From a virus: 64,000 nucleotides of DNA. Below, piece after piece: positions 38,352-63,179 of this stretch (positions are counted from its first letter, which is position 1; every line of letters starts with the position of its first letter). The notes beneath the pieces are model-generated. The model was not told where the DNA came from. It saw only the letters and a list, made by a program, of their open reading frames with translations, and searched no databases. The DNA lies in IMG/VR virus record IMGVR_UViG_3300027644_000003, positions 35,470 through 99,469 of that record. The stretch is one strand, 5' to 3'. The translations under genes and the position numbers were made by a program.

Positions 38352-38387
38352 GCCCTCATGGACGAAGGGCGGCTTGTCCATGAGGGC
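38352..38387 (-). terminator. 12-bp hairpin with AAGCCGCCCTTC loop
   Basis: Perfect GCCCTCATGGAC/GTCCATGAGGGC stem; weak U-tract. Confidence 0.6.
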
Positions 38388-38407
38388 GTTCTAGATTAAG
38401 TCTCTTA

Positions 38408-38773
38408 TTAGAGACGTTCGTACAAATAGCCCTTTTCTTGCAAGTGCTGAGCAACTTGCTTTGCTACTTTGTACTTTTGTCCGGCTTTAAAGGAATAATG
38501 ATTTCCTACGCCGATTGTTACAAAATCTAGGTCTTCAGCGACACGAATAACTTGTGCGTCATCTGCAAGACTTACGCCTACGGTCTCGACTTCGTCAATA
38601 ACTGTTGGACTGTTTGGGGATGTAAGATCCACAACCTCTGTCTCTAGCTTAGCTGCAGCTACTGCTGTAGCCATTGACATTTCACCTGCACGTTGTGCAA
38701 GTTCTTCTGCGTGAGCTTTAACTTGCTCTTCGCGTTGACGTCCAGTGACGTCTGTTACTTTTGCTTTTGCCAC
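38408..38773 (-). CDS. Conserved capsid-adjacent protein
   Basis: FKAGQKYKV...VA.HL.EKGY motif. Confidence 0.7.
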   Translation of the reverse strand: MAKAKVTDVTGRQREEQVKAHAEELAQRAGEMSMATAVAAAKLETEVVDLTSPNSPTVIDEVETVGVSLADDAQVIRVAEDLDFVTIGVGNHYSFKAGQKYKVAKQVAQHLQEKGYLYERL

Positions 38774-38803
38774 GATTATTATTCTCCTGTAAGTTTGTGT
38801 TGA

Positions 38804-38829
38804 GGGGCTGGATTTTTAGGCCCAGCCCC
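38804..38829 (-). terminator. Hairpin after major capsid gene
   Basis: GGGGCTGG/CCAGCCCC inverted repeat. Confidence 0.6.
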
Positions 38830-38842
38830 CTAACGGGTTAAA

Positions 38843-39919
38843 TTAGTTTGTTTCTGCTAGAACTACAGACTGATCTGTGATTAGACCAAGACCGTAAATT
38901 GCATACCAAGCAAGCGCATGCTCACGACCGAAGTCTAGAATACCACCATCGCGGAGTTCTACTGGAAGCGAGATTGCGTGACCGAATGCGTTATCTCCAA
39001 TGAAGATTGCGCTGTAACGATCCTTGTTACCATTACCTGTCTTTGTTGCTGGGGATGTGTAACCGCCACCTGTTGGGTAAACGATTGATCCTGCAGCAAC
39101 TGCAGTGTCAGCTGAGTAGCCTGAGCCAGCTCCGCCAACAACCTTTTCGATCTGTGTTGTTTCGATGAATACTGTGTCGTATAGACGACCAATCTCACCT
39201 AGCATGAAGTTACCTGGAGCTGCGTACTTTGTTACTTCGATGAACTCTGGGTTGTCACGAAGCTTGCGGCTCTGGTGTGGGTGGATGAATGCAACATATG
39301 TCTCACCCAAACGAGGGATGTTCTTTGTTGCAAGTGTCTCTACTGCATCCTTAACAACTCCTGTTGTTAGGTCGAATGCACCAGTCATAGAAGCACGGGA
39401 AGTACCTGCGGTACCTGTTCCGTACCAGTCATTTGCAGCTGTAAGACCTGAGCGGTCATAGCCGTAAATAACTGAAGATGCGGCCATGAGTGTGTCACGT
39501 GCCTGACCATCTAGGTATAGAGCCATGTTACGACCAAGAAGACGTGAGGCTGAAGCCATTACGTCATCAAATGATGCGTTAAGTAGTAGCTCTGAAACAG
39601 CAATTGCATAGCCATGCTCTGCAACTGTGATTGAGAATTGCTGTGCTGTTAGTGCGTTTGTCTGCATACGCACGCCTTCGACGAGTGAACCCGCGAAGCC
39701 GAGGTTGTTGTAACGCATAAAGTTGATCTGTAGACCTGGTGCAACTCCTAGTTCTGTCTTCTTAACAGCGAACTGTTCGAAGCGAAGAATAGGCATTGAC
39801 TGGAAAAGAATTTCCTTTGACCAGATGGTCTGAATTGCTTGTGTAAGCTGGCTATTGGAGCCAGAGTACGCTGTTGGGGCCGCGGCTAAATTACCGGTAC
39901 CCGTTACGGCTGATGCCAT
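38843..39919 (-). CDS. Major capsid protein (N4-gp56-like)
   Basis: LRFEQFA, LVEGV, IHPHQ, GEIGRL and DFGRE motifs. Confidence 0.93.
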   Translation of the reverse strand: MASAVTGTGNLAAAPTAYSGSNSQLTQAIQTIWSKEILFQSMPILRFEQFAVKKTELGVAPGLQINFMRYNNLGFAGSLVEGVRMQTNALTAQQFSITVAEHGYAIAVSELLLNASFDDVMASASRLLGRNMALYLDGQARDTLMAASSVIYGYDRSGLTAANDWYGTGTAGTSRASMTGAFDLTTGVVKDAVETLATKNIPRLGETYVAFIHPHQSRKLRDNPEFIEVTKYAAPGNFMLGEIGRLYDTVFIETTQIEKVVGGAGSGYSADTAVAAGSIVYPTGGGYTSPATKTGNGNKDRYSAIFIGDNAFGHAISLPVELRDGGILDFGREHALAWYAIYGLGLITDQSVVLAETN

Positions 39920-39966
39920 GTCGGTTTTACTCCTTAGTTAGTTTGTTTAATTACTTAGGTAACTTC

Positions 39967-40743
39967 TTACCCGAAGATTCCCTTGCCTCGGTCAGATGCG
40001 GATTTACCCAGCAACTTTCCTCGGTATTTTGCGTATTCGGTAACCGACATTGCGGCAATCTGCTCCGCAGTAAACGAGTTTTGCTCCATATTAGTGTCCA
40101 TCGGTCCGGATGGAGGCGCTGTTACACGACTCCCAGTCATTTCTTTACGGGCATTCTGCATTGCAGACTGCGCCGATTCCAGGATTCTTGAAGATCTCTC
40201 TCTCAGTCCTGTAATACTTTGTTCGATCTCATCAGGAGTACTTCCTGAAATTAGATCTACGAGCTCTGGCATGATGTTATCACGCTCATCTTCTAAGCGG
40301 CGTGTGCGATACTCAGTGAGTTCCGCATATTGACGCTCACGCTCAAGAAGAGTGAAAGCACGTTCGCGTTCTCCGCGTTCTACTTCCAACTTTTGAGCCC
40401 ACTCTAATTCTTTTGCTTCAAGTAGCTGACGAATATCCATATCTGCTTCAGCCTTTTTCTTAGCTTCTGCTTCTGCTTCTGCTGCACGAGTTGCTGCTTC
40501 GGCAAGACGTTCTTCACGCTCTTTCTTGAGCACATTGAGTTCTTCTTTTAGTGAATCTATTTGCGGATAGAGCTTTGATTTTTCCTGCTCACGTACACGC
40601 TTTAGATCATCTTCGCTATAAGCCTTGTCTGTCAAGGCTTGCTCTCTTACTGGTGTTGCTACTGTATCTGTTGCTACTGGAACATCGGCTAGAAAAGCGG
40701 CCTGTGCTTCAGGTGAATCTACGATATTTGTTGTTTCTGACAT
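39967..40743 (-). CDS. Capsid scaffolding protein
   Basis: Coiled-coil; C-terminal IAAMSVTEYAKYR; between portal and capsid. Confidence 0.85.
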   Translation of the reverse strand: MSETTNIVDSPEAQAAFLADVPVATDTVATPVREQALTDKAYSEDDLKRVREQEKSKLYPQIDSLKEELNVLKKEREERLAEAATRAAEAEAEAKKKAEADMDIRQLLEAKELEWAQKLEVERGERERAFTLLERERQYAELTEYRTRRLEDERDNIMPELVDLISGSTPDEIEQSITGLRERSSRILESAQSAMQNARKEMTGSRVTAPPSGPMDTNMEQNSFTAEQIAAMSVTEYAKYRGKLLGKSASDRGKGIFG

Positions 40744-40857
40744 GCTTTTTTTCCTTAGGTTTAAGAGGTCGTTGTCCGATTTAGTGCCACGATGACCTGC
40801 GGATTATTAGGTGGTAATAGGCTTCCAAACTATTACTAGTTTGTCTGCCTAAACTTG

Positions 40858-42564
40858 TTATTCTGGCTTATCCGAATCTGGGACCCTCTTTTGAGGAATC
40901 TTAGTTCCGTATGCCTCTGTAACAAGTTCAACTTGAGTCTGTTGCAGTTCTTGCAAGACTCCTTCTTCTAGTGGGGAAATTACCCCAGGTTGTCCGGTAG
41001 GTCCAGGTCCAACTCCCTGTCCAGGATCTTGTCCTGGAGGTGTGGTTCCATCTGGAAGAATTCCGGTTAAAGATGCAATAGAGGATGCAATTTGATTTCT
41101 TACTAGTTGGAGAGCTCCGTCGGCTTTAGCGTCAGCAATTAGCTCTGAACGGATCTCCTCAAGCTTTTCATCTGGGAACTCTTCGCCAAGTTGACGTAAA
41201 GCTCCTTCACGACTCTCAAGACCCATAGCCATTTTGCTCTGAATTTCATTTAATACAATGAGCTTATCTAATGGGAGTGGAGGTGGAAAATGTACTGTTG
41301 ATTCGTAGGTAGTAGGATCATCAAGATTTAATACTGGAAGTTGGAACTTCTTTATAGGTCCATTCTTAGCTTGGTCCCAAATAAATAACTCTGGTTCTTT
41401 AAATGCAAGTGTGCGAAGAATAAGACTATTGATCTGCTGCATTCCCTCGCCGTATTGAATCATCTTCTGTTGATAACGATTCATCAATGGCTGGTACTGA
41501 ATAGAAAGGGCAACACCTGAAGTATTAGAAATTGGTTGTACTTGTCCAAGAGCTGTCTCTGGAACACCAACCATTTCGTGCATTGCAGTTTTGATTATCT
41601 TTAGGTACTCCATGGCTCCTTGAAGGCCTTGACCGCCACCTTCTAGGTTAAAGACTTGAGCGTCTTTTGGTAGCCCGCCCCAGACCTTCTTAGGTCCCTT
41701 TTCAAGGGAGGAGGCCTTAGCACCTGTGATAACTGTAACTGGTGCCGCATGGTAGTTAATGATGTCTGCAACATCTGTTGCTACTTCGTTATAGTTACGG
41801 TTTAGAACAATAATATCGTGGCAGTCTGATAAGCCCCAAGGGGATCCAGAAACCAATACGTTTGCAATGTGAATGATTGGAACTACGCCAATAGGGTTTG
41901 GACGAGAGTCAATTAGCTCATCGTTAATATATTCTTCAATTCTGTCATCAGTCAAGATCTCTGTGTAGGTGTAGACCTGACGAGTACCTTCCATAGAAGT
42001 ACCCCAAAAACGGTACTTAAGCTTAAAACGAATTAAACGTGAACGATCATGCGGGTGGAACTCTGGGAAACAAAAAGAAGAGTTTAAAGGAAGTACACGT
42101 ACACGTCCTGCGTGCATAGCACCAATAGAGTCTTGATAAGCTTCTTCGTAAGCTACTTTGACAAAACAATCGCCAGATACTCCGCCTTGCTGTCCCATCT
42201 CCCACATAACAGAATGTTTATCATTATCTACTTCCCAGACTCTCTTTAACATATCTGGTACTACTGATTCTGTTTCTGCTGGACTGCGGAAAGATGCTCC
42301 GCGACCAAATGTAAAGTTACATATGTAATCTGTAAACGCTCTATAATAATTGTAAACCATTTGTGATTCGCCTATTTCACGGCGATAAGACCAATGATGG
42401 CCAAGATACATTGCCCAATTAAGCGAGTAACGATTTAGTCTTGGACCGTGTACTTCAAATTCTTCATCAGCAAGTTCTACTAAACCAAGAGGAGAAATAG
42501 AGATTGTTAAGTCGGAAGACGCAGCTCTATAACTGGGAGGTGAAAAATCAATGCCACCGGCCAT
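40858..42564 (-). CDS. Portal protein (SPP1 gp6-like)
   Basis: NPIGVVPIIHIAN, WGLSD and SNTSGVAL motifs. Confidence 0.92.
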   Translation of the reverse strand: MAGGIDFSPPSYRAASSDLTISISPLGLVELADEEFEVHGPRLNRYSLNWAMYLGHHWSYRREIGESQMVYNYYRAFTDYICNFTFGRGASFRSPAETESVVPDMLKRVWEVDNDKHSVMWEMGQQGGVSGDCFVKVAYEEAYQDSIGAMHAGRVRVLPLNSSFCFPEFHPHDRSRLIRFKLKYRFWGTSMEGTRQVYTYTEILTDDRIEEYINDELIDSRPNPIGVVPIIHIANVLVSGSPWGLSDCHDIIVLNRNYNEVATDVADIINYHAAPVTVITGAKASSLEKGPKKVWGGLPKDAQVFNLEGGGQGLQGAMEYLKIIKTAMHEMVGVPETALGQVQPISNTSGVALSIQYQPLMNRYQQKMIQYGEGMQQINSLILRTLAFKEPELFIWDQAKNGPIKKFQLPVLNLDDPTTYESTVHFPPPLPLDKLIVLNEIQSKMAMGLESREGALRQLGEEFPDEKLEEIRSELIADAKADGALQLVRNQIASSIASLTGILPDGTTPPGQDPGQGVGPGPTGQPGVISPLEEGVLQELQQTQVELVTEAYGTKIPQKRVPDSDKPE

Positions 42565-42640
42565 TACTCACAACTCCCCATCTTAATTTTTTAAACCCCT
42601 TTGTTTTCTTCTCTAACTCTTACTTAGAATATATCTAAGT

Positions 42641-42680
42641 AAAAACTTCCAACCCCGGAGAAGGGGTGCGGGGTTGGAAG
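42641..42680 (-). terminator. Intrinsic terminator with CACCCCTTCTC loop
   Basis: Perfect 12-bp stem CTTCCAACCCCG/CGGGGTTGGAAG followed by TTTTT on minus strand. Confidence 0.85.
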
Positions 42681-42699
42681 CTTCTACAGTCTACTATAT

Positions 42700-43107
42700 T
42701 TAATCTGCTACTTGAGCAGGGTTCATACGTTGCTGGCGTCCACCTGAGCGGATTACCTCTTCAATAACAACCTGTGAATGATCACCGAAGTTACCTTGGG
42801 AAAACTCTGCGTTATAGGCTGGAGCCTCTGGCCATGCGGCTGAACCGACATGTGCACGTTGTTTCATTGTTTCTTCTGGATACTTTTCAAACACGTTAAC
42901 ATTGTGGTTTGGACGACCCGCTGGGGTGTCATATCCTTGATCTAGTCCCAATTGAAAATCTTGTGGGACATCTGTGTCAGTTGCAATACCTTCTTCAAAG
43001 CGAAGTGGTCCGCGTTGTCCTGGTACTGATCCTGCCATCTTGCGTTCGTATGTTGCGCCAACCTTCTCAGGGAACTGAGGTGTTGGAGCAATGTTATCTA
43101 CTGCCAT
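42700..43107 (-). CDS. Conserved virion-associated protein
   Basis: 135 aa ORF with AGGAG RBS between terminase and portal. Confidence 0.7.
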   Translation of the reverse strand: MAVDNIAPTPQFPEKVGATYERKMAGSVPGQRGPLRFEEGIATDTDVPQDFQLGLDQGYDTPAGRPNHNVNVFEKYPEETMKQRAHVGSAAWPEAPAYNAEFSQGNFGDHSQVVIEEVIRSGGRQQRMNPAQVAD

Positions 43108-43183
43108 GTTTACTCCTTATGCATAGGGATTGAGGGTCCTCAGGTATAAGTCTCTACCTTAGGACTGCTTTTTAAATGCTAAA

Positions 43184-44779
43184 TTAAGAAAAAAATGGGG
43201 AGGCACTTACTTCTACTGTAGGCATCACCATATCCTGGGTCATGGCACAAGCTATGGCTAGAGAGTCCACAAAGTCGTCGTGGGCGTGGGCTTCATCAGG
43301 AGCAGCCACTAAAAAGTTTGGCCCCTTGTACTGGACTTCTGCGTCAGTCATTTGTTGATAAAATTTCTTCCAAAGACGTAAACGACGAGTTTTTGCGTGG
43401 GCAGGCCAAGAAACCATCTGACGTTGGATTAGTGCTTGTAGGTGCTTCCATCTCTTAGATTGTTCCGAAGGACTTGAGGTAATGGGGACTACCTCAGCTC
43501 TAGGCATAAGAACTTTTAAACGTCCAGCTACAGCATCTCCAACACCGTTAGAGTCCACACCAATTGCCAGGACGTCATAGTTACCCAAGAAGTTAACTAT
43601 TTGGAAGTATTGTTCTTCCCAGTCATCGCCTTGAATTTCTAGCCAATTAAGAACACGATGGTCATAATAACCAAATTCATCAGGCCTATCCCAATCAACC
43701 CAGACAACAGTAACAACTGTAGAGTCCATCTTTCTTGCGGGGTCAATTCCAACCACAACCGGGGAACGGTGCCAACTCTTAACAAGTTCTTGAGACGTGT
43801 CTCCAAGCTCATCCATAATCGTTGAGGTAAGGAACATACCTCTTTCCAAAAGCCACTTACAGTTGTACGACATCTGAAACTCATCTGAATCCTCTCCAAC
43901 ACGTAACATCTCCTTTTTAATAAACTTTTCGTAGTTATCGTTAAACTTTGCAACATCCCGCCAATCCCATTGGAAATGGTTTTGTTTGGCTGAACGTCCT
44001 GTTTGCCTACGCTTGTTCAATTGAATAGCTCTATAGAAGTTATTCTTTGAAGTAGTAGGGGTACCGGTTTTAACAATAGTAGCGTTGTAGTAAGCACCCA
44101 TTGGAGAAATTGACTTAGACACAACAAAGTCATCTGCTTCTTGACACTCATCAATAATAATTAGGTGGAAAGACTTAGACTCGATCTTTGCACGAGGGTT
44201 AGCTGTCATCATCATAAGAGTAGAGCCTGAGTTCTTTAACTTGATGTTACGCACAACTCCAGGAGTTTTTGTAGCCATATCGTCAATCTCAGGATCTCCA
44301 AGAACTTCTAGGGCTCTTTCACTTGTAAGACGAGAAACAGTTCTACCGTACAGGGTTTCTACCTGTGATTGGATGGGAGCAAACATACCTACCCAGATAC
44401 CATCTCCAAACTTACCTAGAAGTTCAGGGTACATCTTTGCAAGGCGTGGAAGGATAACCATCAATGTTGCAACGGTATTAGCAATAGTTTCTGACTTACC
44501 TGACTGACGAGAGGCAAGTGCGGTTACTTCTTCACCGTCATTAATAATAACTGATTCAATAATGCGTCTAGCAAGAGGTTCTTGATAAGCGTGCAGCTTA
44601 TGACCCACTAGCATTTCCATAAAAGCCATAATCTTATTTATTAAGGCTTTTACAAACTCTTTAGACAGTTCGTCTAACTCATCCGGATCTTCTTCAAGCA
44701 GGTCGTCTTCTTCTAAACTTAATTCTTCATGGGGGTCTATTTCCTCAAATTGTTCTTCGTCGTACTCAAAATTATCCAT
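43184..44779 (-). CDS. terL: Terminase large subunit
   Basis: RQSGKS (Walker A), IIIDE (Walker B), GIDPA and DDFVDS (nuclease). Confidence 0.96.
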   Translation of the reverse strand: MDNFEYDEEQFEEIDPHEELSLEEDDLLEEDPDELDELSKEFVKALINKIMAFMEMLVGHKLHAYQEPLARRIIESVIINDGEEVTALASRQSGKSETIANTVATLMVILPRLAKMYPELLGKFGDGIWVGMFAPIQSQVETLYGRTVSRLTSERALEVLGDPEIDDMATKTPGVVRNIKLKNSGSTLMMMTANPRAKIESKSFHLIIIDECQEADDFVVSKSISPMGAYYNATIVKTGTPTTSKNNFYRAIQLNKRRQTGRSAKQNHFQWDWRDVAKFNDNYEKFIKKEMLRVGEDSDEFQMSYNCKWLLERGMFLTSTIMDELGDTSQELVKSWHRSPVVVGIDPARKMDSTVVTVVWVDWDRPDEFGYYDHRVLNWLEIQGDDWEEQYFQIVNFLGNYDVLAIGVDSNGVGDAVAGRLKVLMPRAEVVPITSSPSEQSKRWKHLQALIQRQMVSWPAHAKTRRLRLWKKFYQQMTDAEVQYKGPNFLVAAPDEAHAHDDFVDSLAIACAMTQDMVMPTVEVSASPFFS

Positions 44780-45038
44780 TAGAGTGTCGCTTTACCAAAG
44801 ACTCCAGAATAACGTGCAAAGCTTCTGCACCTATGCGGGCCTCTTCTAAAGAAGCAAGGTCTCTAGTTTTTTGCCAAGTAGAAAGATTACGACCAATTGT
44901 GTATAGGGCGTTCTCTGTCCAGGGCATTAAGTCTGATGTGGGTAGCGTCTCAACTCTTTTTTCTATACGAGACTTTTCTTTCTGTACTTTTTCTTTACGA
45001 AAATTAATGCTGATCATCTTGTGCTCCAAATCTAACAA
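44772..45038 (-). CDS. Hypothetical protein upstream of terL
   Basis: Helical 88 aa ORF overlapping terL start. Confidence 0.6.
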   Translation of the reverse strand: MLDLEHKMISINFRKEKVQKEKSRIEKRVETLPTSDLMPWTENALYTIGRNLSTWQKTRDLASLEEARIGAEALHVILESLVKRHSNG

Positions 45039-45297
45039 AGTCCCAGTTTATTTCTTCGTCTGGGAGATATCTACCACGAATAGCATTGGTTAGTGCCTGG
45101 CTCTCATCATACGATGAATTCCACTTACCTACAACTAAAGCCAGTCTAGTGAACGGTAGTCGTATTGAAACTCCAACTCCACCCCTAAACGGTAAGGCTA
45201 TTTCTTGAGTTTCAGCTCTTTCCCACAAAATTGGTGGCTTTACCGGATATACCAGTGTATGCCAATAAAGAGATCCAACAGTTCTTGGATTTGCCAA
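45004..45297 (-). CDS. Hypothetical protein
   Basis: 97 aa ORF in operon; GAGG RBS. Confidence 0.65.
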   Translation of the reverse strand: MANPRTVGSLYWHTLVYPVKPPILWERAETQEIALPFRGGVGVSIRLPFTRLALVVGKWNSSYDESQALTNAIRGRYLPDEEINWDFVRFGAQDDQH

Positions 45298-45299
45298 TC

Positions 45300-45560
45300 T
45301 TATACCTCACAGTCGTGTCCCATAACTTCTACTTCTCGTAGAGGTTCTAAACAAATTTTACACCGATACCATCTTTGTACAGTAAAACTATTTTGAGATG
45401 TTCCGCCAACAGGAACCTCTACACCACCATCAGGCTGTGGTTGATAGTCTGAGATTACCTCAGGAGAATCAAACAGCTCTGGTGGGAATGGTCCCTTAGG
45501 CGAATGCGCAGTCTCAGGTACGGGATGCCCTTGTCTCGTAACTATGCGCTCAATGCGCAT
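45300..45560 (-). CDS. Zn-finger-like hypothetical protein
   Basis: C-terminal CKIC...HDC. Confidence 0.65.
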   Translation of the reverse strand: MRIERIVTRQGHPVPETAHSPKGPFPPELFDSPEVISDYQPQPDGGVEVPVGGTSQNSFTVQRWYRCKICLEPLREVEVMGHDCEV

Positions 45561-45712
45561 TATTCTGCAGGCGCTTCAGTTGTCTTCTTTGTAGTTTTCT
45601 TTGTTTCTTCTACTACAGGCTCTGCAACGGGTGTTTCTACTACAGGTGTCTCTACTACTGGTGCTGGAGCTACTGGTTCTTCAGTATTCCATGGTTTTGA
45701 CCAAGTTGTCAT
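45560..45712 (-). CDS. Small Pro/Glu/Val-rich protein (50 aa)
   Basis: Manual ORF MTTWSKPWNTEEPVAPAPVVETP...; GAGGA RBS, TAATG coupling. Confidence 0.7.
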   Translation of the reverse strand: MTTWSKPWNTEEPVAPAPVVETPVVETPVAEPVVEETKKTTKKTTEAPAE

Positions 45713-45761
45713 GTGATTTTCCTCTCGTTAGACAAAAAGATATTCTACATGGGTTTCTTGG

Positions 45762-45791
45762 TTGCTGACCCCCTGTAGTTACTGCTACGGT
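45762..45791 (+). promoter_or_regulatory. SigA-like promoter for SLT gene
   Basis: TTGCTG-N18-TACGGT with extended -10 TGn. Confidence 0.45.
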
Positions 45792-45935
45792 ATATCCATG
45801 GTTCAGGCATCTGGGCCATCACTAACTACGTAACAAAAGGGTTGCAGTACGAATCCGGCAGACATAGGCCGGATTGCTTTTATGCGGGTGACAGTCGCAT
45901 AGGGTAAGAACTGGCCTTCTAGCCTAGGAGATAGT

Positions 45936-46478: not shown

Positions 46479-46486
46479 ATAATAGT

Positions 46487-46512
46487 AAAGGCCCGGGAGA
46501 CCGGGCCTTTTC
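46487..46512. terminator. Bidirectional terminator
   Basis: AAAGGCCCGG-GAGA-CCGGGCCTTTT between convergent genes. Confidence 0.88.
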
Positions 46513-46515
46513 TAT

Positions 46516-53557: not shown

Positions 53558-53980
53558 GAGAGGGGGGACTAGCTCCTCCCTCTCCCTATCTATGTCCACA
53601 GTATCCCTGTGGGCGTAGATGGGGTATGCCGACCAATCGGCTCACTCTGGTATGTAATGTGCCAGCCCCCGCACTAATGGATTACCTACAAGTGTCTTCT
53701 GTCTATCGAGAAGCCCTAGCCGTCCCCTTCACAATGTCGGCTAGGGCTTTCTCATCTCACAATGTGATACAACTCTCATCATAGATAATTGGCTACTGCT
53801 AATTGGCTAACTATGAGCATTGGGAGACACACCAGGTCTACGACTATGGTCTAGGTCTGTTATCAGGTAGGTTGTGGAAGATACATAGGACAACAGACTG
53901 AGACTCGTAAGGTGTTAATTTGTCTGTGTAGTGCGTAGGTCGCCCTTCCCTATGTATCTCTCACTCTCTATCTGGAGAGT
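53558..53980 (+). ncRNA. Multi-hairpin, pseudoknotted non-coding region
   Basis: At least eight stems found by eye; no ORF of 60 aa or more. Confidence 0.6.
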
Positions 53981-54386: not shown

Positions 54387-54415
54387 TCCCCCCCGATTTA
54401 TAAGAAAGGATCGTT

Positions 54416-54565: not shown

Positions 54566-54589
54566 TACACCAATCCTTCCCCGCGAAGT

Positions 54590-54866: not shown

Positions 54867-54894
54867 TCGAGGTAAATAAACAGAAGGGAAGACT

Positions 54895-54981: not shown

Positions 54982-55008
54982 TTCCTCGAGAAGGGGATAC
55001 ACAGTGGC

Positions 55009-55215: not shown

Positions 55216-55234
55216 CCTAACAGAAGGGATAACA

Positions 55235-55609
55235 ATGACTATAACCATAGTTGAATGCGCAAGATGTCAAGACCCACAAGTATTCAAGCCCATGTCTATG
55301 GACTCTGATATACCTGTTGCTTTAGACATATCATTAGATGGTGGTTACGCAATGTTCGTAGACAACATCTATGCTGAGGGTGGTAAGAACCCCCTGCAAT
55401 TCACATTGTGCCACAAGTGTGCCCACGAGTTTACAAAGTTCATGGGTATACCTGAGACCACAGTGTTTAACTGGCACTCAAATACAGAGGAGGAATACTG
55501 CAGTGGCTACACCAAAGAATGGTTTAACGAACAATACGATAAACAAATCGCTTACGTCAAAGAAAACTGGCACAAGCAATTCCCCAACAACCCATTCCCC
55601 AACGCTTGA
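55235..55609 (+). CDS. Zn-binding hypothetical protein
   Basis: CARC...LCHKCAH; AGAAGGG RBS. Confidence 0.8.
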   Translation: MTITIVECARCQDPQVFKPMSMDSDIPVALDISLDGGYAMFVDNIYAEGGKNPLQFTLCHKCAHEFTKFMGIPETTVFNWHSNTEEEYCSGYTKEWFNEQYDKQIAYVKENWHKQFPNNPFPNA

Positions 55610-55755
55610 AGAAATAAAGAAAGACCTGTTCATTGCCATTGAAGTTCTCAATGGTTATACAGAGCACGAAGCATTGCTAAACTGGCAATGCGTACAAGGT
55701 ACGTGCCAATGCTCGTAACCAACACAAACCCACACACCCCCGAAAGGAGCCTTCA

Positions 55756-56013
55756 ATGGCAGGGAAAAAATCAGGCGCTTCAAGAAATGATAGCCGCCCT
55801 AATGGAAAAGCATGGAAGCAAAATCCTGGCCCAGATGGAGTCAAATCCAAGTTTGTCTCTCGACCAGGTCGTATTAACGGTCGCAGTGCAAGCAACCATG
55901 AAAAGCGTGAAGCCTGGAAAGTATCAGGAGGTCGTGTTGACCACCCGACTATCCCACACTGGCGCACTGGCAAGGTAAGAAAGGAAGCAGTAAGTGTTTC
56001 CAATGACGCCTAG
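55756..56013 (+). CDS. Basic hypothetical protein
   Basis: GAAAGGAG RBS. Confidence 0.75.
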   Translation: MAGKKSGASRNDSRPNGKAWKQNPGPDGVKSKFVSRPGRINGRSASNHEKREAWKVSGGRVDHPTIPHWRTGKVRKEAVSVSNDA

Positions 56014-56191
56014 CCAATCATGGCTATTCCTGTTCTTATTGTTTTATTCAATAGGCATAACAACCTATGCATATGTATGGCGTAATAAATATTACGACCT
56101 ACAGTCTTATCGTATCTATGAGCGTAAACAACAAGCATATAAGCGCACACAGATGGACGAGTTATATTCAGAGTCATTTCTAAAAGACTAA
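55994..56191 (+). CDS. Small membrane protein
   Basis: N-terminal hydrophobic helix. Confidence 0.7.
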   Translation: MFPMTPSQSWLFLFLLFYSIGITTYAYVWRNKYYDLQSYRIYERKQQAYKRTQMDELYSESFLKD

Positions 56192-56193
56192 TC

Positions 56194-56416
56194 TTGCACG
56201 GGAGCGGGATGAACTGCGTTCAGAAAACTCCCCTCGTGAGTCCGCACCATCATGCGGAATACAAATGAGATGGAGCTTGTATAGATGTCAAAGTCTATGC
56301 AAGCACGTTGGGCAGAAGCATAATGATTAGCCAATAGAAACCGATCGAAGTCTCAGAGAAGATGGTATTTGGTCTAGCGGGTATCTCATGGAGAAACTAC
56401 TCCCGCCTATGTGCAA
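56194..56416 (+). ncRNA. 223-nt closed structured RNA
   Basis: TTGCAC/GTGCAA and GCGGGA/TCCCGC closing helices; internal 12-bp hairpin; loop-distal pairing. Confidence 0.65.
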
Positions 56417-56571
56417 CTTTTCAAAACACCAGAGACTAAATGCGTTTGCTGTTGACAGCACACCTCGGGGTAACTCCCACGTGTGCCGAGGCTAGAGTCA
56501 GGATAACCCCGTCAAAAGTGGTGCTTCTGTCCAACACAAACAACCCCCCAACACACAGAAGGGACAACAAC

Positions 56572-56853
56572 ATGTGGCTATCAAAGCGCAAGTTGATAAG
56601 CCGAATTGAGCGCATGATGGTCGAGCAGGAACTCGAACTCCATGACCTTGATTCGCAACACAGCAGGGCATACCATACCGGCATGATAGATGGCTTAGGT
56701 ATGGCACTCTTTGCAGTGTCACCAATTGCAGCAAGACGTAATCCAATCAGTATTGTATGGTTTGATGAAGATTACGACGAACCACGCAAAGTGGAACAAG
56801 ACAGAGAAACTCTGTTTGATGCAACTATGTTTGAAAGCGTAGAAGCAAGATGA
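56572..56853 (+). CDS. Hypothetical protein
   Basis: Start placed at ATG 56572 behind AGAAGGG RBS. Confidence 0.75.
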   Translation: MWLSKRKLISRIERMMVEQELELHDLDSQHSRAYHTGMIDGLGMALFAVSPIAARRNPISIVWFDEDYDEPRKVEQDRETLFDATMFESVEAR

Positions 56854-57566
56854 CCAGAGGTGCGTGGCACGTAACAGACTACGACACAGCTAAATCATAT
56901 CTATCGGGCGGTCACAAAAAATGGGATCGTCCTTTATATGTGCGAGGACTGCGTATTCAAAGTAGAAGCAAAGACATTGCTATCGTGGATAAATGGTACA
57001 ACTTTGAACCCATTTTGTTTCATCCCGATGGCACATTGACAATACAAGCACCTCAAGCAATACCAAACAATTGGGGTGGCACATGGAATCCTTTACGTTC
57101 ACAAGGTGTGCGAAGAAACTTCAAAGACTTCAGTGGACTACAAGGAATGTTTCAAAAGAATGGAACTGTATACATAACTACACAAGATGCTTTGAGGACA
57201 CCCTCAAAGATTCAAAAGTGTAGAACATGTCATGGACTTGGTTTAGTAGATAGTTGGTGTTCTCCATCATATTGTCAAAATGACTTTCCATGTAATGATC
57301 ACCCTGAATGGCAACCCAATGTTAGTTCTAGTAGTTATAGATGGCATTATGGTAATTGTCCACATGGTAACTCAGACAGTCACAGCGTTCCAAAATCACA
57401 AGACTGCTATCACTGCAAAGGTGTAGGGCTTCGTGAGTATGGTAACAACCTCATCTCTATTGCTTGGGATGGTTCCCCAATCAGGCTTAAAGATGGCAAC
57501 TTAGTAAAACAACCTCCAACCGAACTAGAGAAAAGGATCGCAGCGTATGTCCAACTTGACAGTTGA
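56850..57566 (+). CDS. Protein with DnaJ-type Zn-finger motifs
   Basis: CRTCHGLG and CYHCKGVG. Confidence 0.75.
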   Translation: MTRGAWHVTDYDTAKSYLSGGHKKWDRPLYVRGLRIQSRSKDIAIVDKWYNFEPILFHPDGTLTIQAPQAIPNNWGGTWNPLRSQGVRRNFKDFSGLQGMFQKNGTVYITTQDALRTPSKIQKCRTCHGLGLVDSWCSPSYCQNDFPCNDHPEWQPNVSSSSYRWHYGNCPHGNSDSHSVPKSQDCYHCKGVGLREYGNNLISIAWDGSPIRLKDGNLVKQPPTELEKRIAAYVQLDS

Positions 57567-58011
57567 TTACACTGGTGAAGCAGTACCAACGCAAGGTTTG
57601 GTGACCACGCCTAAAGAGGCTGCTCATCGAATTATGCTTGGTTATGTGCCAGCCAATCTAAAAGACCTAAGCACTAATACTCACTTCAGAGATACAGTGC
57701 TTGGTTACATATTGAGAGATACAACAGAGCACGACGTAGTGTTAGAAGTATTATGCTGTGCCCTACGTCATGCAGCAGAAGAAGCAGATATCCGTATGTA
57801 TAGCGAGTATGTAGCAGCAGTTGCTTACTCGTGGGAACATCCAACTCTTGCGCTAAAAGCAATCTCTCGCAACAAGCCTACAAACGCAACCACCTTCATT
57901 TGGTCAGTGGCTCAGGCGATGTACAAGAAAATGCCTGGGCCTTTCTATCAAACTCTAATTGTTTCTCAATTAGAACAAAGCGAACAGCAATGGGCTAACA
58001 CCACGCCATAA
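57547..58011 (+). CDS. DUF4192-like protein
   Basis: FRDTVLG motif, helical; paralogous to 62481-62987. Confidence 0.55.
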   Translation: MSNLTVDYTGEAVPTQGLVTTPKEAAHRIMLGYVPANLKDLSTNTHFRDTVLGYILRDTTEHDVVLEVLCCALRHAAEEADIRMYSEYVAAVAYSWEHPTLALKAISRNKPTNATTFIWSVAQAMYKKMPGPFYQTLIVSQLEQSEQQWANTTP

Positions 58012-58027
58012 CCGTTCCAACACAAAC

Positions 58028-58260
58028 ATTCACACGACAAGAAGCACTCGGCAAAATACTTAACTCGACCCAAGCCGGAACGCAATAACAATGGGCCGTG
58101 GGAAGATGGTTGAAGGTGACTAACTGGTCCAACTAACCGCTTCCGCGAGCGAATCAATTCATTTGAGCAGGCCCGTAGTAGCTAAGATTTCAGTCCCTTT
58201 TGTCCTTCGTGCGTAACTCTTGTGAATACCTCGGGGCAGGTCTTATTGACCTGCCTCGGG
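58028..58260 (+). ncRNA. Structured intergenic RNA plus 13-bp hairpin
   Basis: ATTCAC/GTGAAT closure, ATGGGCC/GGCCCGT inner stem, hairpin 58230-58260. Confidence 0.5.
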
Positions 58261-58288
58261 GAACTTAACCTACTAGAAGGGAACCATA

Positions 58289-58534
58289 ATGTCTATGTTT
58301 TTTCCAGACCACGACCACAATGACGACACGCCAGATTTTGAAAACCTGTCTCCTGTTGAAAAGCAAGAGTTCTATGACTATATTACGAAGCAAATGAATT
58401 TGATTATACAAAAAGCAGAAACACAAGGAGTGCTGTTTGATTTAATTACAAAATGGCCCCACGATAAGCAGGTAGCGTATGAGATGGCTACCGTAATTGA
58501 GAACCGCGTCCTAGAAGACGACGACGAACGCTAA
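58289..58534 (+). CDS. Acidic hypothetical protein
   Basis: 81 aa ORF; AGAAGGG RBS. Confidence 0.75.
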   Translation: MSMFFPDHDHNDDTPDFENLSPVEKQEFYDYITKQMNLIIQKAETQGVLFDLITKWPHDKQVAYEMATVIENRVLEDDDER

Positions 58535-58609
58535 GTTTCCTTAACAAATTGTTAGGGAATGTCATAGCAATATGACAAACGATTCCATTACCAAAGAAGG
58601 GGTAAAGAT

Positions 58610-60052
58610 ATGGATATCGCTGTATTCACAGAGTCGTACGAACCAATCATGGGGGCTAAGCGCCGTCAGGTTCTTATCACTCCACATGATGGAAATGTAC
58701 GAATCTACTCACGTGATACTGACGGGACTAAGGGTCCTCACAACAAGTGGGAGGAAACTGACCTCGACACTATCACTGGACAGATAGGTACTGATGAAAA
58801 GCTAACACGTGAACCTGTTGCTGTATATGTTACATCAGCAGACGAACGTGCTATGACGGACAAAGGTTATTCCCCGGTCCTCGGCACCAAGGCGTGTCAA
58901 GCACATACTAAAGCAGGACTCAACACGGATACTACGCCATTTGTAGAACGCTTATGCGAAATCTACGAAGCGGTAAGTAACCATGATGATTCTCTTGAAA
59001 ACCATGTGATTGACAATCGTCGTATGCCAGGCTTACCTGTTCCGCTAGCATCAGCACCAACACAAACAACGCCAGCACCTACCGCAACACCATTTGTAGA
59101 GCCTGTTGTTCAAGCAACAAGTACATCAAACGGCGCAGTAATAACCGCAGCGCTTGCTTCAGTGCCACGCATTGAACTAGCAAAACGTTATGTGCATCGT
59201 GATATCTGGTCCCGCCAGGACTTTGAAATCTTTGATTACTCTCGTGCTAAAAGCATCAACGTTCTTATCTACGGCCCTACCGGCCCAGGTAAAACTACAT
59301 CTGTTGAAGCATGGGCTGCTGAACGCAATTTACCTATGGCAACAGTATCTGGTAACGCTTCAATGGAGCCAAGCCAAATGACTGGTAAATATGTATCTGA
59401 TGGCAATGGTTCATTTGCATGGATCGATGGCCCAGTTACAGATGTTGTTCGTAATGGTGGTGTCTTATTACTCGACGAGGTTAACTTCATCAGTCCTAAG
59501 ATCTACACTGTTCTATATTCATTGCTAGATGGTCGTCGTTCTATCACACTGTTGGATCACCATGGTGAAACTATTGAGGCTCATCCAGACCTCACTATCT
59601 TCGCTACTATGAATCCAGATTACATTGGTACAACGCCGCTCAACTTTGCATTCCGCAATCGTTTTGATATCCAGATTCCATGGGATTACGACGATAAGGT
59701 CGAGTCTAAACTAGTCTCCTCCAAGGCTTTGCTTGTAGTTGCTAAACAACTACGCGTTGAAGCTAACAAAGGTCAATACGAGACACCAATCTCAACCAAC
59801 ATGCTGCAAGAGTTCGTTAACTTTGTTGACCCTCTTGGCTACGAGTTCGCAGTGGAAAACTTCATTGCTCACTTTAGTTCTGACGAAGCAGCAAGCGTTC
59901 GATTGGTATTTCAGACACACGAACACAATATCAAGACAGACTTTGGTATTGAAATCCCAATAACTCTTGAGAAAGAGTCTGAAGGAAAATCTCCTGAAGA
60001 ACTTCTTAAAGAGTGGGCAGGACAATACGGAGCAGTTAACGGATTGGTATAA
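58610..60052 (+). CDS. MoxR/CobS-like AAA+ ATPase
   Basis: GPTGPGKT, LLDEVN, ATMNP and NRF motifs. Confidence 0.93.
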   Translation: MDIAVFTESYEPIMGAKRRQVLITPHDGNVRIYSRDTDGTKGPHNKWEETDLDTITGQIGTDEKLTREPVAVYVTSADERAMTDKGYSPVLGTKACQAHTKAGLNTDTTPFVERLCEIYEAVSNHDDSLENHVIDNRRMPGLPVPLASAPTQTTPAPTATPFVEPVVQATSTSNGAVITAALASVPRIELAKRYVHRDIWSRQDFEIFDYSRAKSINVLIYGPTGPGKTTSVEAWAAERNLPMATVSGNASMEPSQMTGKYVSDGNGSFAWIDGPVTDVVRNGGVLLLDEVNFISPKIYTVLYSLLDGRRSITLLDHHGETIEAHPDLTIFATMNPDYIGTTPLNFAFRNRFDIQIPWDYDDKVESKLVSSKALLVVAKQLRVEANKGQYETPISTNMLQEFVNFVDPLGYEFAVENFIAHFSSDEAASVRLVFQTHEHNIKTDFGIEIPITLEKESEGKSPEELLKEWAGQYGAVNGLV

Positions 60053-60054
60053 CT

Positions 60055-61971
60055 ATGTACATTGAAGAACTAGAACAGCACTGGGGTGATGCCCGGACTG
60101 AAGATACACAGCAACGTTCTGTTCGACTCAATGCACTATGTCGTGTATACGAACAGGCTGACCGTGTACTCACGGGTGACCCAGTCACAGTCAATGTAGT
60201 GCCTAACGGCCCCGCACCAGCGTGGTCTGATGGTGCATCTATTTACATCAACCTTGATCAAATTGAGGAGATGGACTTAGAAACATTAACACAGGTTAAC
60301 GGTCTCAATTACCATGAGCTAGCCCATCACCTGTATACGCCTCGCAAAGGCACAGAACTAATCAAGTGGGTCATTGATAAAAAATACTTCCAAGCCTTTA
60401 ACATCTTGGAAGATCAACGTATCGAGACTCTCTTAGTTGGTAGATATCCATCTATTGCGCCATACCTAACAGCAACAGTTGCTCGTTGGTTAGGTGCATC
60501 AGAAGATGTCAATGGTAACTATGTCTGCATACGTGGCCGTCGTTACTTACCTGTTGAAATTAGACAAGCATTCCGTGACGAGTTTGCCTTCCCTGAACTA
60601 ATACCAACAATAATTAGAATCGTAGATGAGTATCGATTGCTAGCGTTTCCACAAGGATACGCACGAGCACAAGAACTAATCGAAGAGTTCTATGATGAAG
60701 TATGCCTACCAATGGGCTTACTACCTGAGATGGATGGTGGCCCCAACAAGTGTGGTGGTCGTGATCCAGTATCAAAAGGCAGACCTGAACCTGGTAAGGC
60801 TCAGGAGAAAGACGCTCAACGAGCAGCAGGTATGGGTACTAAAGAATCTACTTATGTACCTAAACCTAAAACTAATGAGAGCCCATCTTCAGATAACAAT
60901 GGACTATCTGATATGCCTACCAACACAAACCCAAACGATGACGGCAATGGATCTAATCCATCTACCACATCTGCGCCACGCTCTGTCCAAGAAGCATTGG
61001 ACATACGAGAGCAAAATATAAATACATCCTCAATAACACCCGGAACAGGACATGCTCCTAGTCTTGGTGGTTTACCTGACAAAATCAATGACATGCTAAA
61101 TACAGCAATTGATGAAGTGCTTGAACGTAAAGATGTACAAGCAGACGTCAAAACAAAACAGCGTGTAATTGTAGGTGGAGATGGTAAACACGAGGATATA
61201 ACTAAGAAAGGTAAATTCAATGATACAAGCGTTCCCCAAGACGCAATAATCTCTTATCGCAAGTTTGCTAAAGAGTTACAGCGTTTACGCGATGATTCAG
61301 AACCTACGTGGCAAAGAGAAACCCCTACAGGTCGACTCAATGTACAACGTGTAATCAGAGGTTGCGAAATTGATCAATCCTTTGATAGGTGGGACGAAGG
61401 TGATGATGGCTGTGATATCGAAGCAGTTATCCTTGTCGACCGTTCAGGTTCTATGTCTAGTCAACAGAATGATAAAAAAGCATCTATCGCTTGCTGGACT
61501 ATCAAACGTGCGCTAGAACATATACAAGCCCCAGTCACCGTCTATGCCTTTGATGATAAAGCAGAAGTTGCTTATACTCGTAATGAGCGTGCATCTAAAA
61601 CTCAATACAAGTTCATCTATGGTAATGGTGGTACAGAACCGTACCCAACCTTGCTTGCTGCCGAACAGTTACTTATGGCTTCGCGTAAGAAGAATAAGAT
61701 GCTGTTCATTGTTACCGATGGTGTGTTCAACACAAACAAAAACGACGAACTAATTGAACGCATTACCCGTCGCGGTATCTTGACATCTATGATTCTTATC
61801 ATGGAGGATAAAGAATGGAAATACTATGTAGAAGACCATAACCAACTCACTCAAGAGCAGTTACGGCACAAAGCAGAAGTATTTGCCCGTATCAATACTG
61901 CCAAAGACTTACTCCCATTTGCTAAACAAGTGGTAGTCAGTGCCATCAAAAAACGCTCGAGAATGAGATAG
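60055..61971 (+). CDS. CobT-like VWA protein with N-terminal metallopeptidase motif
   Basis: HELAH, FNILEDQRIE, MIDAS DRSGS, GGT and VTDG motifs. Confidence 0.92.
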   Translation: MYIEELEQHWGDARTEDTQQRSVRLNALCRVYEQADRVLTGDPVTVNVVPNGPAPAWSDGASIYINLDQIEEMDLETLTQVNGLNYHELAHHLYTPRKGTELIKWVIDKKYFQAFNILEDQRIETLLVGRYPSIAPYLTATVARWLGASEDVNGNYVCIRGRRYLPVEIRQAFRDEFAFPELIPTIIRIVDEYRLLAFPQGYARAQELIEEFYDEVCLPMGLLPEMDGGPNKCGGRDPVSKGRPEPGKAQEKDAQRAAGMGTKESTYVPKPKTNESPSSDNNGLSDMPTNTNPNDDGNGSNPSTTSAPRSVQEALDIREQNINTSSITPGTGHAPSLGGLPDKINDMLNTAIDEVLERKDVQADVKTKQRVIVGGDGKHEDITKKGKFNDTSVPQDAIISYRKFAKELQRLRDDSEPTWQRETPTGRLNVQRVIRGCEIDQSFDRWDEGDDGCDIEAVILVDRSGSMSSQQNDKKASIACWTIKRALEHIQAPVTVYAFDDKAEVAYTRNERASKTQYKFIYGNGGTEPYPTLLAAEQLLMASRKKNKMLFIVTDGVFNTNKNDELIERITRRGILTSMILIMEDKEWKYYVEDHNQLTQEQLRHKAEVFARINTAKDLLPFAKQVVVSAIKKRSRMR

Positions 61972-61980
61972 GAGGTAAAC

Positions 61981-62181
61981 ATGTACGTTGTATTTGACAA
62001 TATGACTGAAACAATAATTGGACCATTTAATGATTATGAAGATGCACAGATGTTCGTTCTACATGCATCAGGCATAACTATTAATGATTATGTTTCAGAC
62101 TTAACTATTGAACCTGTCTCTGAACCTCAGGAATGGGCTTTGGATAATGGATTAGAATCAGAACTAGGAGTTCTATCATGA
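61981..62181 (+). CDS. Hypothetical protein
   Basis: IGPF..YEDA motif; AGGAGG RBS. Confidence 0.75.
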   Translation: MYVVFDNMTETIIGPFNDYEDAQMFVLHASGITINDYVSDLTIEPVSEPQEWALDNGLESELGVLS

Positions 62182-62315
62182 ACAATAAAGAAATGGCTGA
62201 ACAAGATAAAGAAACATATGCGCAATACGAAGCTGCTACCCGTCAACTGTTAATCAAACACAAAGCGGAAGACCTATTACCAATGCTAGGACTAGAGGAA
62301 CAAACAAATGAGTGA
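62178..62315 (+). CDS. Hypothetical protein (45 aa)
   Basis: Manual ORF MNNKEMAEQ...MLGLEEQTNE; ATGA overlap, AGGAG RBS. Confidence 0.7.
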   Translation: MNNKEMAEQDKETYAQYEAATRQLLIKHKAEDLLPMLGLEEQTNE

Positions 62316-62484
62316 ACAACTCAAAGCACAACAAGAGTTCGTCAATCGTTCGGGTGAGTGCACATGCATTGTGTACCACCCAGTTGGCGAAGAATACCAA
62401 CGAGTGTTCATGGAATGGACACGCACTGGCAAAAGTAGCATGGCTATGGCTGCCCAATTGTTTAGTGAATGTGGCACCCGATGA
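62308..62484 (+). CDS. Hypothetical protein (58 aa)
   Basis: Manual ORF MSEQLKAQQEF...ECGTR; GAGGA RBS. Confidence 0.7.
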   Translation: MSEQLKAQQEFVNRSGECTCIVYHPVGEEYQRVFMEWTRTGKSSMAMAAQLFSECGTR

Positions 62485-62987
62485 GCATCACTATAACACG
62501 CAAAGAAGCCTGTGAACTAATACGTTCATACATTGGTAAACCAAATGGACCTAAAGGAGAAGACTTAAACAAGATTGTCTTTGCTGTAAACAATGACTAT
62601 CAAGTACGGGACTTTATGCTAGGTCTGCCTGAATACTATGATGTACAAGAAATTGTTAACTTCTTGTGCCACATGTCCAACAAAGCGCCTTGCGGTGAAG
62701 ATGCACCATTTATCACTGTCAACGCAGCGCTTGCCTACGAACACGACCAACTAGAAGACTTCTTTAGTCAGGTTGGGTACGTGGCAACACATAGGCCTGA
62801 GTACTCTCTAAATCAAATGCTTATGCGATGTGCAAAGGCACACTTCCCCGGTGAGATGCTAGGTAAAATGCGCGGAGAGTTAGCCGCCATAGTAATGAAG
62901 TCGTGTTACACAGACACGCCAGATCAGATCATTACAAAACTAGAGAAGCCAGACAAACTCGACTCAACACAAACAACCGATGTCTAA
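62481..62987 (+). CDS. DUF4192-like protein
   Basis: DYQVRDFMLG and YSL..ML motifs. Confidence 0.65.
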   Translation: MSITITRKEACELIRSYIGKPNGPKGEDLNKIVFAVNNDYQVRDFMLGLPEYYDVQEIVNFLCHMSNKAPCGEDAPFITVNAALAYEHDQLEDFFSQVGYVATHRPEYSLNQMLMRCAKAHFPGEMLGKMRGELAAIVMKSCYTDTPDQIITKLEKPDKLDSTQTTDV

Positions 62988-63162
62988 GTACTTAGTTAGA
63001 TGCAAAGCATCTGTGTACTTTGATATTGAAATGGAAGCACAAGAAAAATGGGACGCCGAATCTGAAGGTCTTGATGCTTTCGGCAACCTATTAGACAACG
63101 CACCCTTGCCATCTCCTCTTGAATGGGATAGCGTAGAAGTGTGGGAAGTAGAACCCATCTAA
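62980..63162 (+). CDS. Small acidic protein
   Basis: 60 aa ORF overlapping upstream gene. Confidence 0.7.
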   Translation: MSKYLVRCKASVYFDIEMEAQEKWDAESEGLDAFGNLLDNAPLPSPLEWDSVEVWEVEPI

Positions 63163-63179
63163 CGAGTAGAAGGGAAAAC

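Follow-up and report, generated by a model that had tools for sequence, protein, structure and literature searches.

We analysed a 64,000-nucleotide window (bases 35470-99469 of a 99,469-base-pair phage genome, IMG/VR virus record IMGVR_UViG_3300027644_000003; 43.5% GC) that contains three strong hairpins, referred to here as H1, H2 and H3, with CCCUUC in their loops, and a class of ribosome-binding sites (RBSs) complementary to these loops. Genes from approximately 53180 leftwards lie on the minus strand. Among them are the major capsid gene (38843-39919) and, next after it, a 121-amino-acid gene (p121; 38408-38773), which together form a unit (38408..39919) that closes at H1. On the same strand the p135 gene (42700-43107), located between the large terminase gene (43184-44779) and the portal gene (40858-42564), forms its own short unit that closes at H2. 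The plus-strand block begins at 53023 and extends beyond the window end (window part, 53023-64000); it contains small unknown genes and a MoxR-like AAA ATPase gene with a VWA protein. H3 lies in this block past a plus-strand gene of 175 amino acids.

A preliminary description of this DNA had reported the three hairpins and their shared loop word, and both reports hold. We scanned the whole 99,469-bp genome for perfect stems of at least 8 bp and found that exactly three GC-rich 12-bp perfect stems (8 GC pairs each) occur genome-wide, namely H1, H2 and H3. All three loops, of 12, 11 and 15 nucleotides (nt) respectively, contain CCCTTC on the transcribed strand, with a rough, composition-based chance of approximately 4e-9. 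H1 (38352..38387, minus strand) is found 20 nt past the p121 stop and has a 12-bp stem and the loop AAGCCGCCCUUC (38364-38375). H2 (42640..42686, minus strand) is found 12 nt past the p135 stop, and its 12-bp core stem (42646-42680), extendable to 18-19 pairs, encloses the loop CACCCCUUCUC (42658-42668) and is followed by a UUUUU tail. H3 (53708..53753, plus strand) is found approximately 160 nt past the 175-amino-acid gene, with a core stem at 53711-53749 and the loop UCCCCUUCACAAUGU (53723-53737). The predicted folding energies are -25.4, -27.2 and -27.0 kcal/mol for H1 to H3 (z approximately -6.5), and none of 200 shuffled sequences folded as well. A GC-rich hairpin soon after a stop codon, as expected of an intrinsic terminator, is thus present at 20 nt for H1 and 12 nt for H2, with the longer spacing for H3. 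The sequence after the stem is UUUUUAC for H2, UCUCAUCUCA for H3 and UCUUAACGUUU for H1, the last being CUUUUUUUA in many relatives. A further CCCTTC that had been reported at 53943 lies within the 9-nt loop (UCGCCCUUC) of a weak hairpin, H4 (53931..53957, plus strand; nine pairs, three of them G.U; -9.2 kcal/mol, z -2.9), 44 nt before the gene starting at 54001. A search of the window against Rfam at the gathering threshold gave no match, including none to 6C RNA (RF01066), and the 6C model gave none over 38200-54200 at E values up to 10. A permissive Rfam search returned sub-threshold matches only, such as sar and STnc40; the match of the H3 region (53676-53757, plus strand) to the sar RNA of phage P22 (RF00262; 27.9 bits against a gathering threshold of 43, E = 0.05) is probably due to chance.

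We found that the loops are kept among relatives while the stems vary freely. Approximately 300 loci were fetched around the capsid, AAA ATPase, HslV, p135, p121 and PolA genes; a search anchored on a 650-amino-acid gene yielded two loci only. In relatives, H2 is located 12-25 nt past the p135 stop, down to 59% p135 identity. Its stems differ entirely (CCCAGCCTCG, CCCGGTCTTG, GGTCTCCAGCTCTG, CTTCCAACCCCG and others), while the loop follows the consensus (U/C)ACCCCUU(U)CUC and stays (U/C)ACCCCUUCUC, with the variants UAUCCCUUCUC, UACCCCUUUCUC and UACUCUUUCUC. The 26 distinct motif-bearing H2 hairpins have 16 inner stems, and 10 of the 26 share the identical loop UACCCCUUCUC. Similarly, H1 lies 14-31 nt past the p121 stop, with 22 inner stems in 32 distinct motif-bearing hairpins, T-rich tails and the loop consensus A(C/U)CGCCCUCC(U). 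Relatives of H3 have other stems and the loops GACCCCUUCAUAAGUG or CUACCUUCCCCGU, with a kept core of CCCCUUCA or CCUUCCCC. When the loop words of intergenic hairpins were counted without bias, CGCCCU, CCCUCC, CCCUUC and CCCCUU ranked highest. The conserved single-stranded seed expected of a trans-acting small RNA (sRNA) is therefore present, in that the loops are conserved over many stems. Some lineages carry GCAA or GUAA tetraloops at the H2 site, and more distant relatives have UUCG-type terminators at the H1 site. Since plain GNRA or UUCG tetraloops occur at the same sites, the large loop is a module added at terminator sites. In phage BRock, no hairpin follows the gene in the p135 position, a positional and putative counterpart of p135, and the loop of the capsid-gene terminator is C-rich (AUUCCCC) and differs from the motif.

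The loops of H1-H3 are pyrimidine-rich and resemble the tail of 16S rRNA, which acts as the anti-Shine-Dalgarno (anti-SD) sequence ACCUCCUUUCU. The actinobacterial 16S rRNA ends in ...CACCUCCUUUCU-3', which may not be the exact sequence of the host of this phage. H1 in relatives contains CCUCC(U), and the H2 loop reads ACC-CCUU(U)CU, which is the 16S tail with one or two single-base gaps. A scan of the genome for the motif in loops identified a fifth hairpin outside the window, in the leader of the PolA gene (genome 23849-23894, minus strand; 3849-3894 in locus L236). Its 12-bp stem encloses a 22-nt loop containing CUCCUUUCU, and 10 nt separate the hairpin from the downstream AAGGAG Shine-Dalgarno (SD) sequence of the PolA gene. 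In relatives with 65-100% PolA identity, the loop holds the exact 16S tail ACCUCCUUUCU, and the stem covaries, with four of nine pairs compensatory. An unpaired stretch identical or nearly identical to the anti-SD is thus found in these loops. Our data indicate that the family-level motif is a mimic of the 16S tail, of which CCCUUC is a local form; CCCUUC is not supported as the family motif, as H1 reads CGCCCUCC in all relatives outside the clade of this phage. The PolA hairpin is a clear candidate for a translational operator or SD-sequestering pseudoknot, even if a model of action in trans fails.

We next consider expression, using assembled contigs from four freshwater metatranscriptome runs mapped on 37500-57400. 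The p135 unit is among the best covered, with contigs running from approximately 43135 to 42631-42694 at depths of 45-159, as are the scaffold-capsid-p121 unit (to 38418-38455) and the 175-amino-acid gene (52912-53560). The lysozyme and PASTA genes, which close at tetraloop terminators, are covered too. Depth is approximately zero over the terminase gene, upstream of p135; stretches of this kind that lack RNA contig cover are no evidence of silence. Depth falls more than 10-fold past H1 and H2, and in three of the four runs RNA contigs stop at or near H2 (42694, 42669 and 42631). Contig coverage fits terminators at the ends of abundant units, and the earlier suggestion that the hairpins stand at the 3' ends of abundant transcripts agrees with their position just past the stops of the best-covered units.

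The second component is the RBS class of the plus block. As previously described, AGAAGGG-type RBSs precede the gene starts at 54895, 55235, 56572, 58289, 58610 and 63180, at 5-8 nt upstream. The AGAAGGG sites lie at 54882..54888, 55222..55228, 56557..56563, 58275..58281 and 63168..63174 (all plus strand) for the starts at 54895, 55235, 56572, 58289 and 63180, respectively, and the AAA ATPase gene starting at 58610 has AGAAGGGGUA (58595..58604, plus strand). A further site, GAGAAGGGG (54988..54996, plus strand), lies 8 nt before a GTG at 55004 that opens a putative open reading frame of 45 codons. With a simple gene call, GAAGGG fell within the RBS window for 6 of the 22 genes of the plus block and for 1 of the 104 on the minus strand (Fisher p = 9e-5). 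The GGAG-type RBS assigned earlier to late genes was likewise recovered for the minus strand, where GGAG or GAGG precedes 58 of 104 genes compared to 5 of 22 in the plus block. The SD register GAA(A)GG, whose pairing partner is the very last stretch of the 16S rRNA 3' end, is used by 8 of 22 plus-block genes and 4 of 104 minus-strand genes. In relatives, the plus block has clade-specific SD flavours (GAAAGG, GGAAGG and AGGAGG) that look homogenised per genome. The plus block has a distinct RBS register, and this is real even if the trans model fails. What had been described as an early-gene class is more properly a class of the plus-strand block; the replication genes (PolA, DnaB, primase, RecA and SNF2 helicase, beyond the window) are found on the minus strand with GGAG-type SDs.

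We found that the H2 loop and these RBSs match one another. Genome-wide, no sense-strand match to the H2 loop exceeds the 9 nt found at two plus-block RBSs, those at 54988 and 58595, the latter belonging to the AAA ATPase gene; five more RBSs match the loop over 7 nt. The site at 54988 is at the same time an 8-nt complement of the H3 loop. Across relatives, associations between loops and RBSs follow clades, and the statistics given here ignore shared ancestry, as they use no tree and no covariance model. In a large clade the AAA-gene RBS is (G)AGAAGGGGUA, a perfect complement of 8-10 nt to the genome's own H2 loop, which grows to as many as 11 pairs when G.U is included. Where the loop is CCCUUUCUC, the AAA-gene RBS is GAGAAAGG(G), and phages with tetraloops have plain AGAAAGG or AAGGAG. 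Of 24 genomes, 19 have a perfect complement of at least 8 nt to their own H2 loop in an RBS window of the plus block, compared to 4 of 24 in the mirror-sequence control, and a complement of at least 10 nt to UACCCCUUCUC was found in 12 of 15 genomes with the CCCUUCUC loop compared to 1 of 13 others (one-sided Fisher p approximately 1.6e-4, calculated by hand and ignoring ancestry). Complementarity between the H2 loop and the AAA-gene RBS is therefore conserved in most genomes with a motif loop. Duplex energies of the AGAAGGG RBS regions range from -11.5 to -17.1 kcal/mol with the H2 loop versus -9.2 to -10.0 kcal/mol with the 16S tail, and for late-gene RBS regions the order is reversed, with the 16S tail favoured over the loop. 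These are duplex energies used in place of RNAcofold, which cannot model pairing of a loop to a strand and yielded intermolecular pairs at the ends only, and few of them. In the predicted fold of the AAA-gene leader (58570-58620, plus strand), UACC pairs with GGUA of the RBS, the AUG lies in a stem and AAAGAAGG lies in a loop. The UACC...GGUA pair is kept in several relatives, and the modelled geometry would be suited to loop-loop contact.

Our favoured reading is that H1-H3 are intrinsic-terminator hairpins at the 3' ends of the most abundant mRNAs of the phage, in which an enlarged, conserved loop replaces the usual tetraloop, imitates the 16S rRNA 3' tail and would work through base-pairing with SD regions. 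H2 and H3, and less clearly H1 and H4, would best match the AGAAGGG(G) RBS class of the plus block, above all the RBS of the AAA ATPase gene. As the p135 and capsid mRNAs accumulate, their 3' loops might compete with the ribosome for these RBSs, and translation of the plus block would be lowered. We hold it quite possible, though short of probable, that the loops mimic the anti-SD and pair with SD regions, H2 and H3 plausibly acting in trans on the plus-block RBS class. The structure of the hairpins, the conservation of their loops, their position at 3' ends, their complementarity to RBSs and the spread of this complementarity among relatives are observations, and from these we infer pairing in the cell, repression and an early plus block. 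A bolder form of this reading, which we consider somewhat unlikely, is that the terminator loops are trans-acting decoys and that the RBSs of one block (AGAAGGGG-type) have shifted from ideal 16S pairing toward the loops of the phage itself. The build-up of capsid-module mRNA would then shut translation of that block automatically, a protein-free temporal switch in 3' ends that would be common to hundreds of freshwater actinophages. The preliminary description had proposed that 3' hairpins seed anti-SD repression of the AGAAGGG genes. The conserved loops, the best-covered units and the 9-11 nt complement between H2 and RBSs in most relatives speak for this proposal, while weak covariation, the sufficiency of 16S pairing and the hint from the PolA hairpin of action in cis speak against it.

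Several observations weigh against the favoured reading. The contigs show no true 3' ends, small RNA, strand or timing, and the earliness of the plus block is a presumption. AGAAGGGA pairs with the last 8 nt of 16S rRNA (3'-UCUUUCCU-5') through seven Watson-Crick pairs and one G.U, so that the AGAAGGG class needs no phage partner; the earlier notion that this RBS class requires a special loop partner is thus not upheld, as AGAAGGGA is a good SD in itself. Furthermore, the A at position 8 in five of seven sites fits the 16S tail better than the loops, and GAAAGG-type SDs mark plus blocks even in relatives without motif loops. Loop and RBS variants co-occur (CCUUCUC with GAGAAGG, CCUUUCUC with GAGAAAGG) in what looks like about one event, with exceptions. 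A permutation of own versus swapped loops gave p = 0.05, a weak covariation that ignores ancestry; orthologous RBSs track loop variants inconsistently, and the genomes L109, L084, L124 and L153, together with the L090/L093 orthologues, are clear exceptions. H1 fits least: its CCCUUC form is restricted to the clade of this phage, the CUU of CCCUUC is predicted to pair with an AAG inside the loop so that the motif is only partly displayed, and the loop otherwise stays CGCCCUCC (CCCUCC) irrespective of which RBS flavour the plus block uses. No RBS in the loci examined matched the extended H1 complement GGAGGGCG, which leaves the conserved CG of H1 without an RBS partner. Finally, the window contains no overall excess of CCCTTC (21 found versus 25 expected); its placement alone is non-random.

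Part of this list would be expected if the hairpins were ordinary terminators with pyrimidine-rich loops, AGAAGGG an ordinary SD variant and the two unrelated. The unenriched word count, the 8-bp pairing of AGAAGGGA with 16S rRNA, the GAAAGG-type SDs in relatives without motif loops and the recent, clade-specific and partly paired CCCUUC of H1 all favour this explanation. It is rather improbable in our view, because without selection on the loop one would hardly expect the identical 11 nt to persist over 10 or more different stems, or to be retained down to 59% protein identity. A large loop also makes a terminator weaker, versions with tetraloops occur at these very sites, and the motif is common to all three of the strongest hairpins. 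If the loop is selected, it might instead be a protein-binding site, in which the 16S-tail look-alike or CU-rich loop recruits or decoys a tail- or pyrimidine-binding protein. Candidates would be the ribosomal proteins bS1 and bS21, RNases or toxins with the anti-SD as their cleavage site, and RNA-binding proteins of the phage, and the outcome could be mRNA stabilisation, enhanced translation or ribosome protection. bS1 prefers pyrimidine-rich single strands, and the exact 11-nt 16S tail in the PolA hairpin would suit tail-binding factors. The loops are kept more strictly than loose SD pairing needs; H1 in particular conserves more than an SD complement (CGCCCUCC, including the unpartnered CG). 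We consider this explanation rather improbable, as no candidate has been identified (p135, which adjoins H2 and might conceivably bind its own 3' hairpin, has neither a family match nor a confident fold), a single protein is hard to reconcile with three differing loop types, and protein binding would not account for the complementarity of 9-11 nt to specific RBSs.

Pairing confined to the same RNA accounts for other parts of the data. Here the anti-SD loop would pair with the SD of the next gene and damp its translation by a pseudoknot-like fold, with H1 and H2 acting in read-through transcripts and the PolA hairpin in a leader; the match to plus-block RBSs would be a by-product of 16S-tail resemblance and complementarity. 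The PolA hairpin is its best case: it precedes the SD by approximately 10 nt, CUCCUU in its loop is perfectly complementary to AAGGAG, and the arrangement is kept at 65-100% PolA identity. H1 with CCCUCC always precedes the p357 gene with the SD GGAGGA at 64-75 nt, whereas tetraloop H1 precedes (A/G)GGAG, and the H1 loop forms a more stable duplex with the p357 RBS region (-12.5 kcal/mol) than the 16S tail does (-10.6 kcal/mol). In many relatives the SD of the next gene begins 3-8 nt past H2. However, the H2 loop and the downstream RBS region in relatives share only a 3-6 nt complement, neither H3 nor H4 is complementary to the AGGAG that precedes the next gene, and H1 loop variants inside the motif clade (L003, L013 and L021) occur without compensating SD changes. 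Transcripts also mostly appear to end at H1 and H2, which would leave little read-through RNA to regulate. As an account of all the hairpins we regard action in cis only as unlikely, and we retain the reading of anti-SD mimics that pair with SD regions, plausibly in trans for H2 and H3.

It is established that C-rich hairpin loops can pair with G-rich RBSs, as in 6C/B11, RNAIII and the UCCC-motif sRNAs. The C-rich hairpin loops of the actinobacterial 6C/B11 sRNA (RF01066) pair with G-rich RBSs, such as AGGGGGG of panD (PMC6486639; PMC10470900), through loop-loop or loop-to-single-strand contacts and without Hfq or ProQ (PMC6486639). The phage hairpins share with 6C this pairing principle and the likely host phylum; unlike 6C, a free-standing host sRNA with two C-rich loops, they are single CU-rich terminator hairpins of phage coding mRNAs. 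In Staphylococcus aureus, hairpins 7, 13 and 14 of RNAIII and UCCC-motif sRNAs (RsaE and others) carry conserved C-rich loops that pair with the SDs of several mRNAs, start as loop-loop contacts and block the 30S subunit (PMC2837412, PMC2790875). For neither 6C nor RNAIII does the pairing of C-rich loops with G-rich RBSs involve a chaperone (PMC6486639, PMC2837412). As a dedicated regulator and a Bacillota host RNA, RNAIII differs from the carrier proposed here, which would be the 3' end of abundant structural-gene mRNAs of a phage. Since hairpin 14 is RNAIII's own terminator, a terminator loop that serves as an anti-SD seed has precedent.

Phage systems offer further comparisons. Similar to sar of P22 and OOP of lambda, a short phage RNA with a terminator hairpin would pair with the RBS of another phage gene and time its expression; sar and OOP are cis-antisense and fully complementary to their targets, whereas the pairing proposed here covers 7-11 nt, in trans, and is anti-SD-like. 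In T4, RegB and RegA act on a class of early genes that is marked by RBS sequence and silenced post-transcriptionally later in infection. Both are proteins, a nuclease and a repressor respectively, while the proposed effector here is RNA; no homologue of either came to light in this phage, although no search was aimed at one. In T4 and RB69 a conserved hairpin, the gene 43 operator, immediately precedes the DNA polymerase SD, and the PolA hairpin occupies the same position relative to a phage DNA polymerase SD. The T4 operator has a 5-bp stem and an 8-nt loop and is bound by polymerase; the PolA hairpin has a 12-16 bp stem and a 14-23 nt loop that is an exact copy of the 16S tail, which suggests that it may act by RNA-RNA sequestration. 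From the 6C, RNAIII and UCCC-motif precedents the elements differ in that they would be terminators of protein-coding phage mRNAs and copy the 16S tail; they fall in no Rfam family.

If the loops pair with RBSs, the abundant mRNAs would themselves be regulators through their terminator loops, and the switch of the phage from early to late expression could proceed by RNA mimicry of the ribosome docking sequence and not by proteins such as T4 RegA and RegB. Relatives with tetraloops at the same sites, together with loop and RBS variants, provide natural controls. The setting is an abundant, uncultured group of freshwater phages whose hosts are probably actinobacterial. By portal protein, the nearest cultured phages are BRock-type Streptomyces phages (60% identity), and a nucleotide search of cultured phages found no close relative. 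Capsid relatives in IMG/VR number approximately 600, and the RNA runs that contain the phage are freshwater metatranscriptomes. Because the nearest cultured phages are BRock-like, and given the capsid relatives in IMG/VR and the freshwater RNA runs, an actinobacterial host is likely.

The window also contains an HslV-like peptidase gene and tail genes, both on the minus strand. The p135 gene encodes a small protein with 58-96% identity across 25 relatives; it had no Pfam or PHROG match, and its structure prediction (pLDDT 52) has hardly any secondary structure and no confident fold. A scan for consensus sigma-70 promoters and terminators performed no better than on shuffled sequences.

Other hairpins were observed in the window and its relatives. 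Directly past the capsid stop is a second hairpin (38804-38829, minus strand), in which the 5' arm is rich in G and the 3' arm in C (GGGGCUGG...CCAGCCCC in this phage, GGGGGCGGG or GGGAGGCUGG in relatives); it has an A-rich loop and a conserved AACACAAAC tail. A hairpin at the strand switch (52946-52976) contains the T-loop-like sequence GGTTCAACTCC, in place of which some relatives have GGTTCGATTCC; ARAGORN found no tRNA at this hairpin. Near the strand switch in relatives (L100:3702-3733, L105:6916-6943, L106:703-732 and L095:4959-4988), a hairpin carries the loop UUGAGGGG or UUUGAGGGAG over four unrelated stems, with CCCCUCAA on the other strand. A bidirectional terminator with a perfect stem of 10 bp (46487-46510), AAAGGCCCGG-GAGA-CCGGGCCTTT, separates the lysozyme-like gene of the plus strand from genes of the minus strand and is conserved in relatives. 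In relatives the plus block closes with a terminator (L084:11158-11185, L092:16068-16092, L096:11752-11780 and others) that has variable stems and loops and is followed directly by an invariant AATGTTTGTG.

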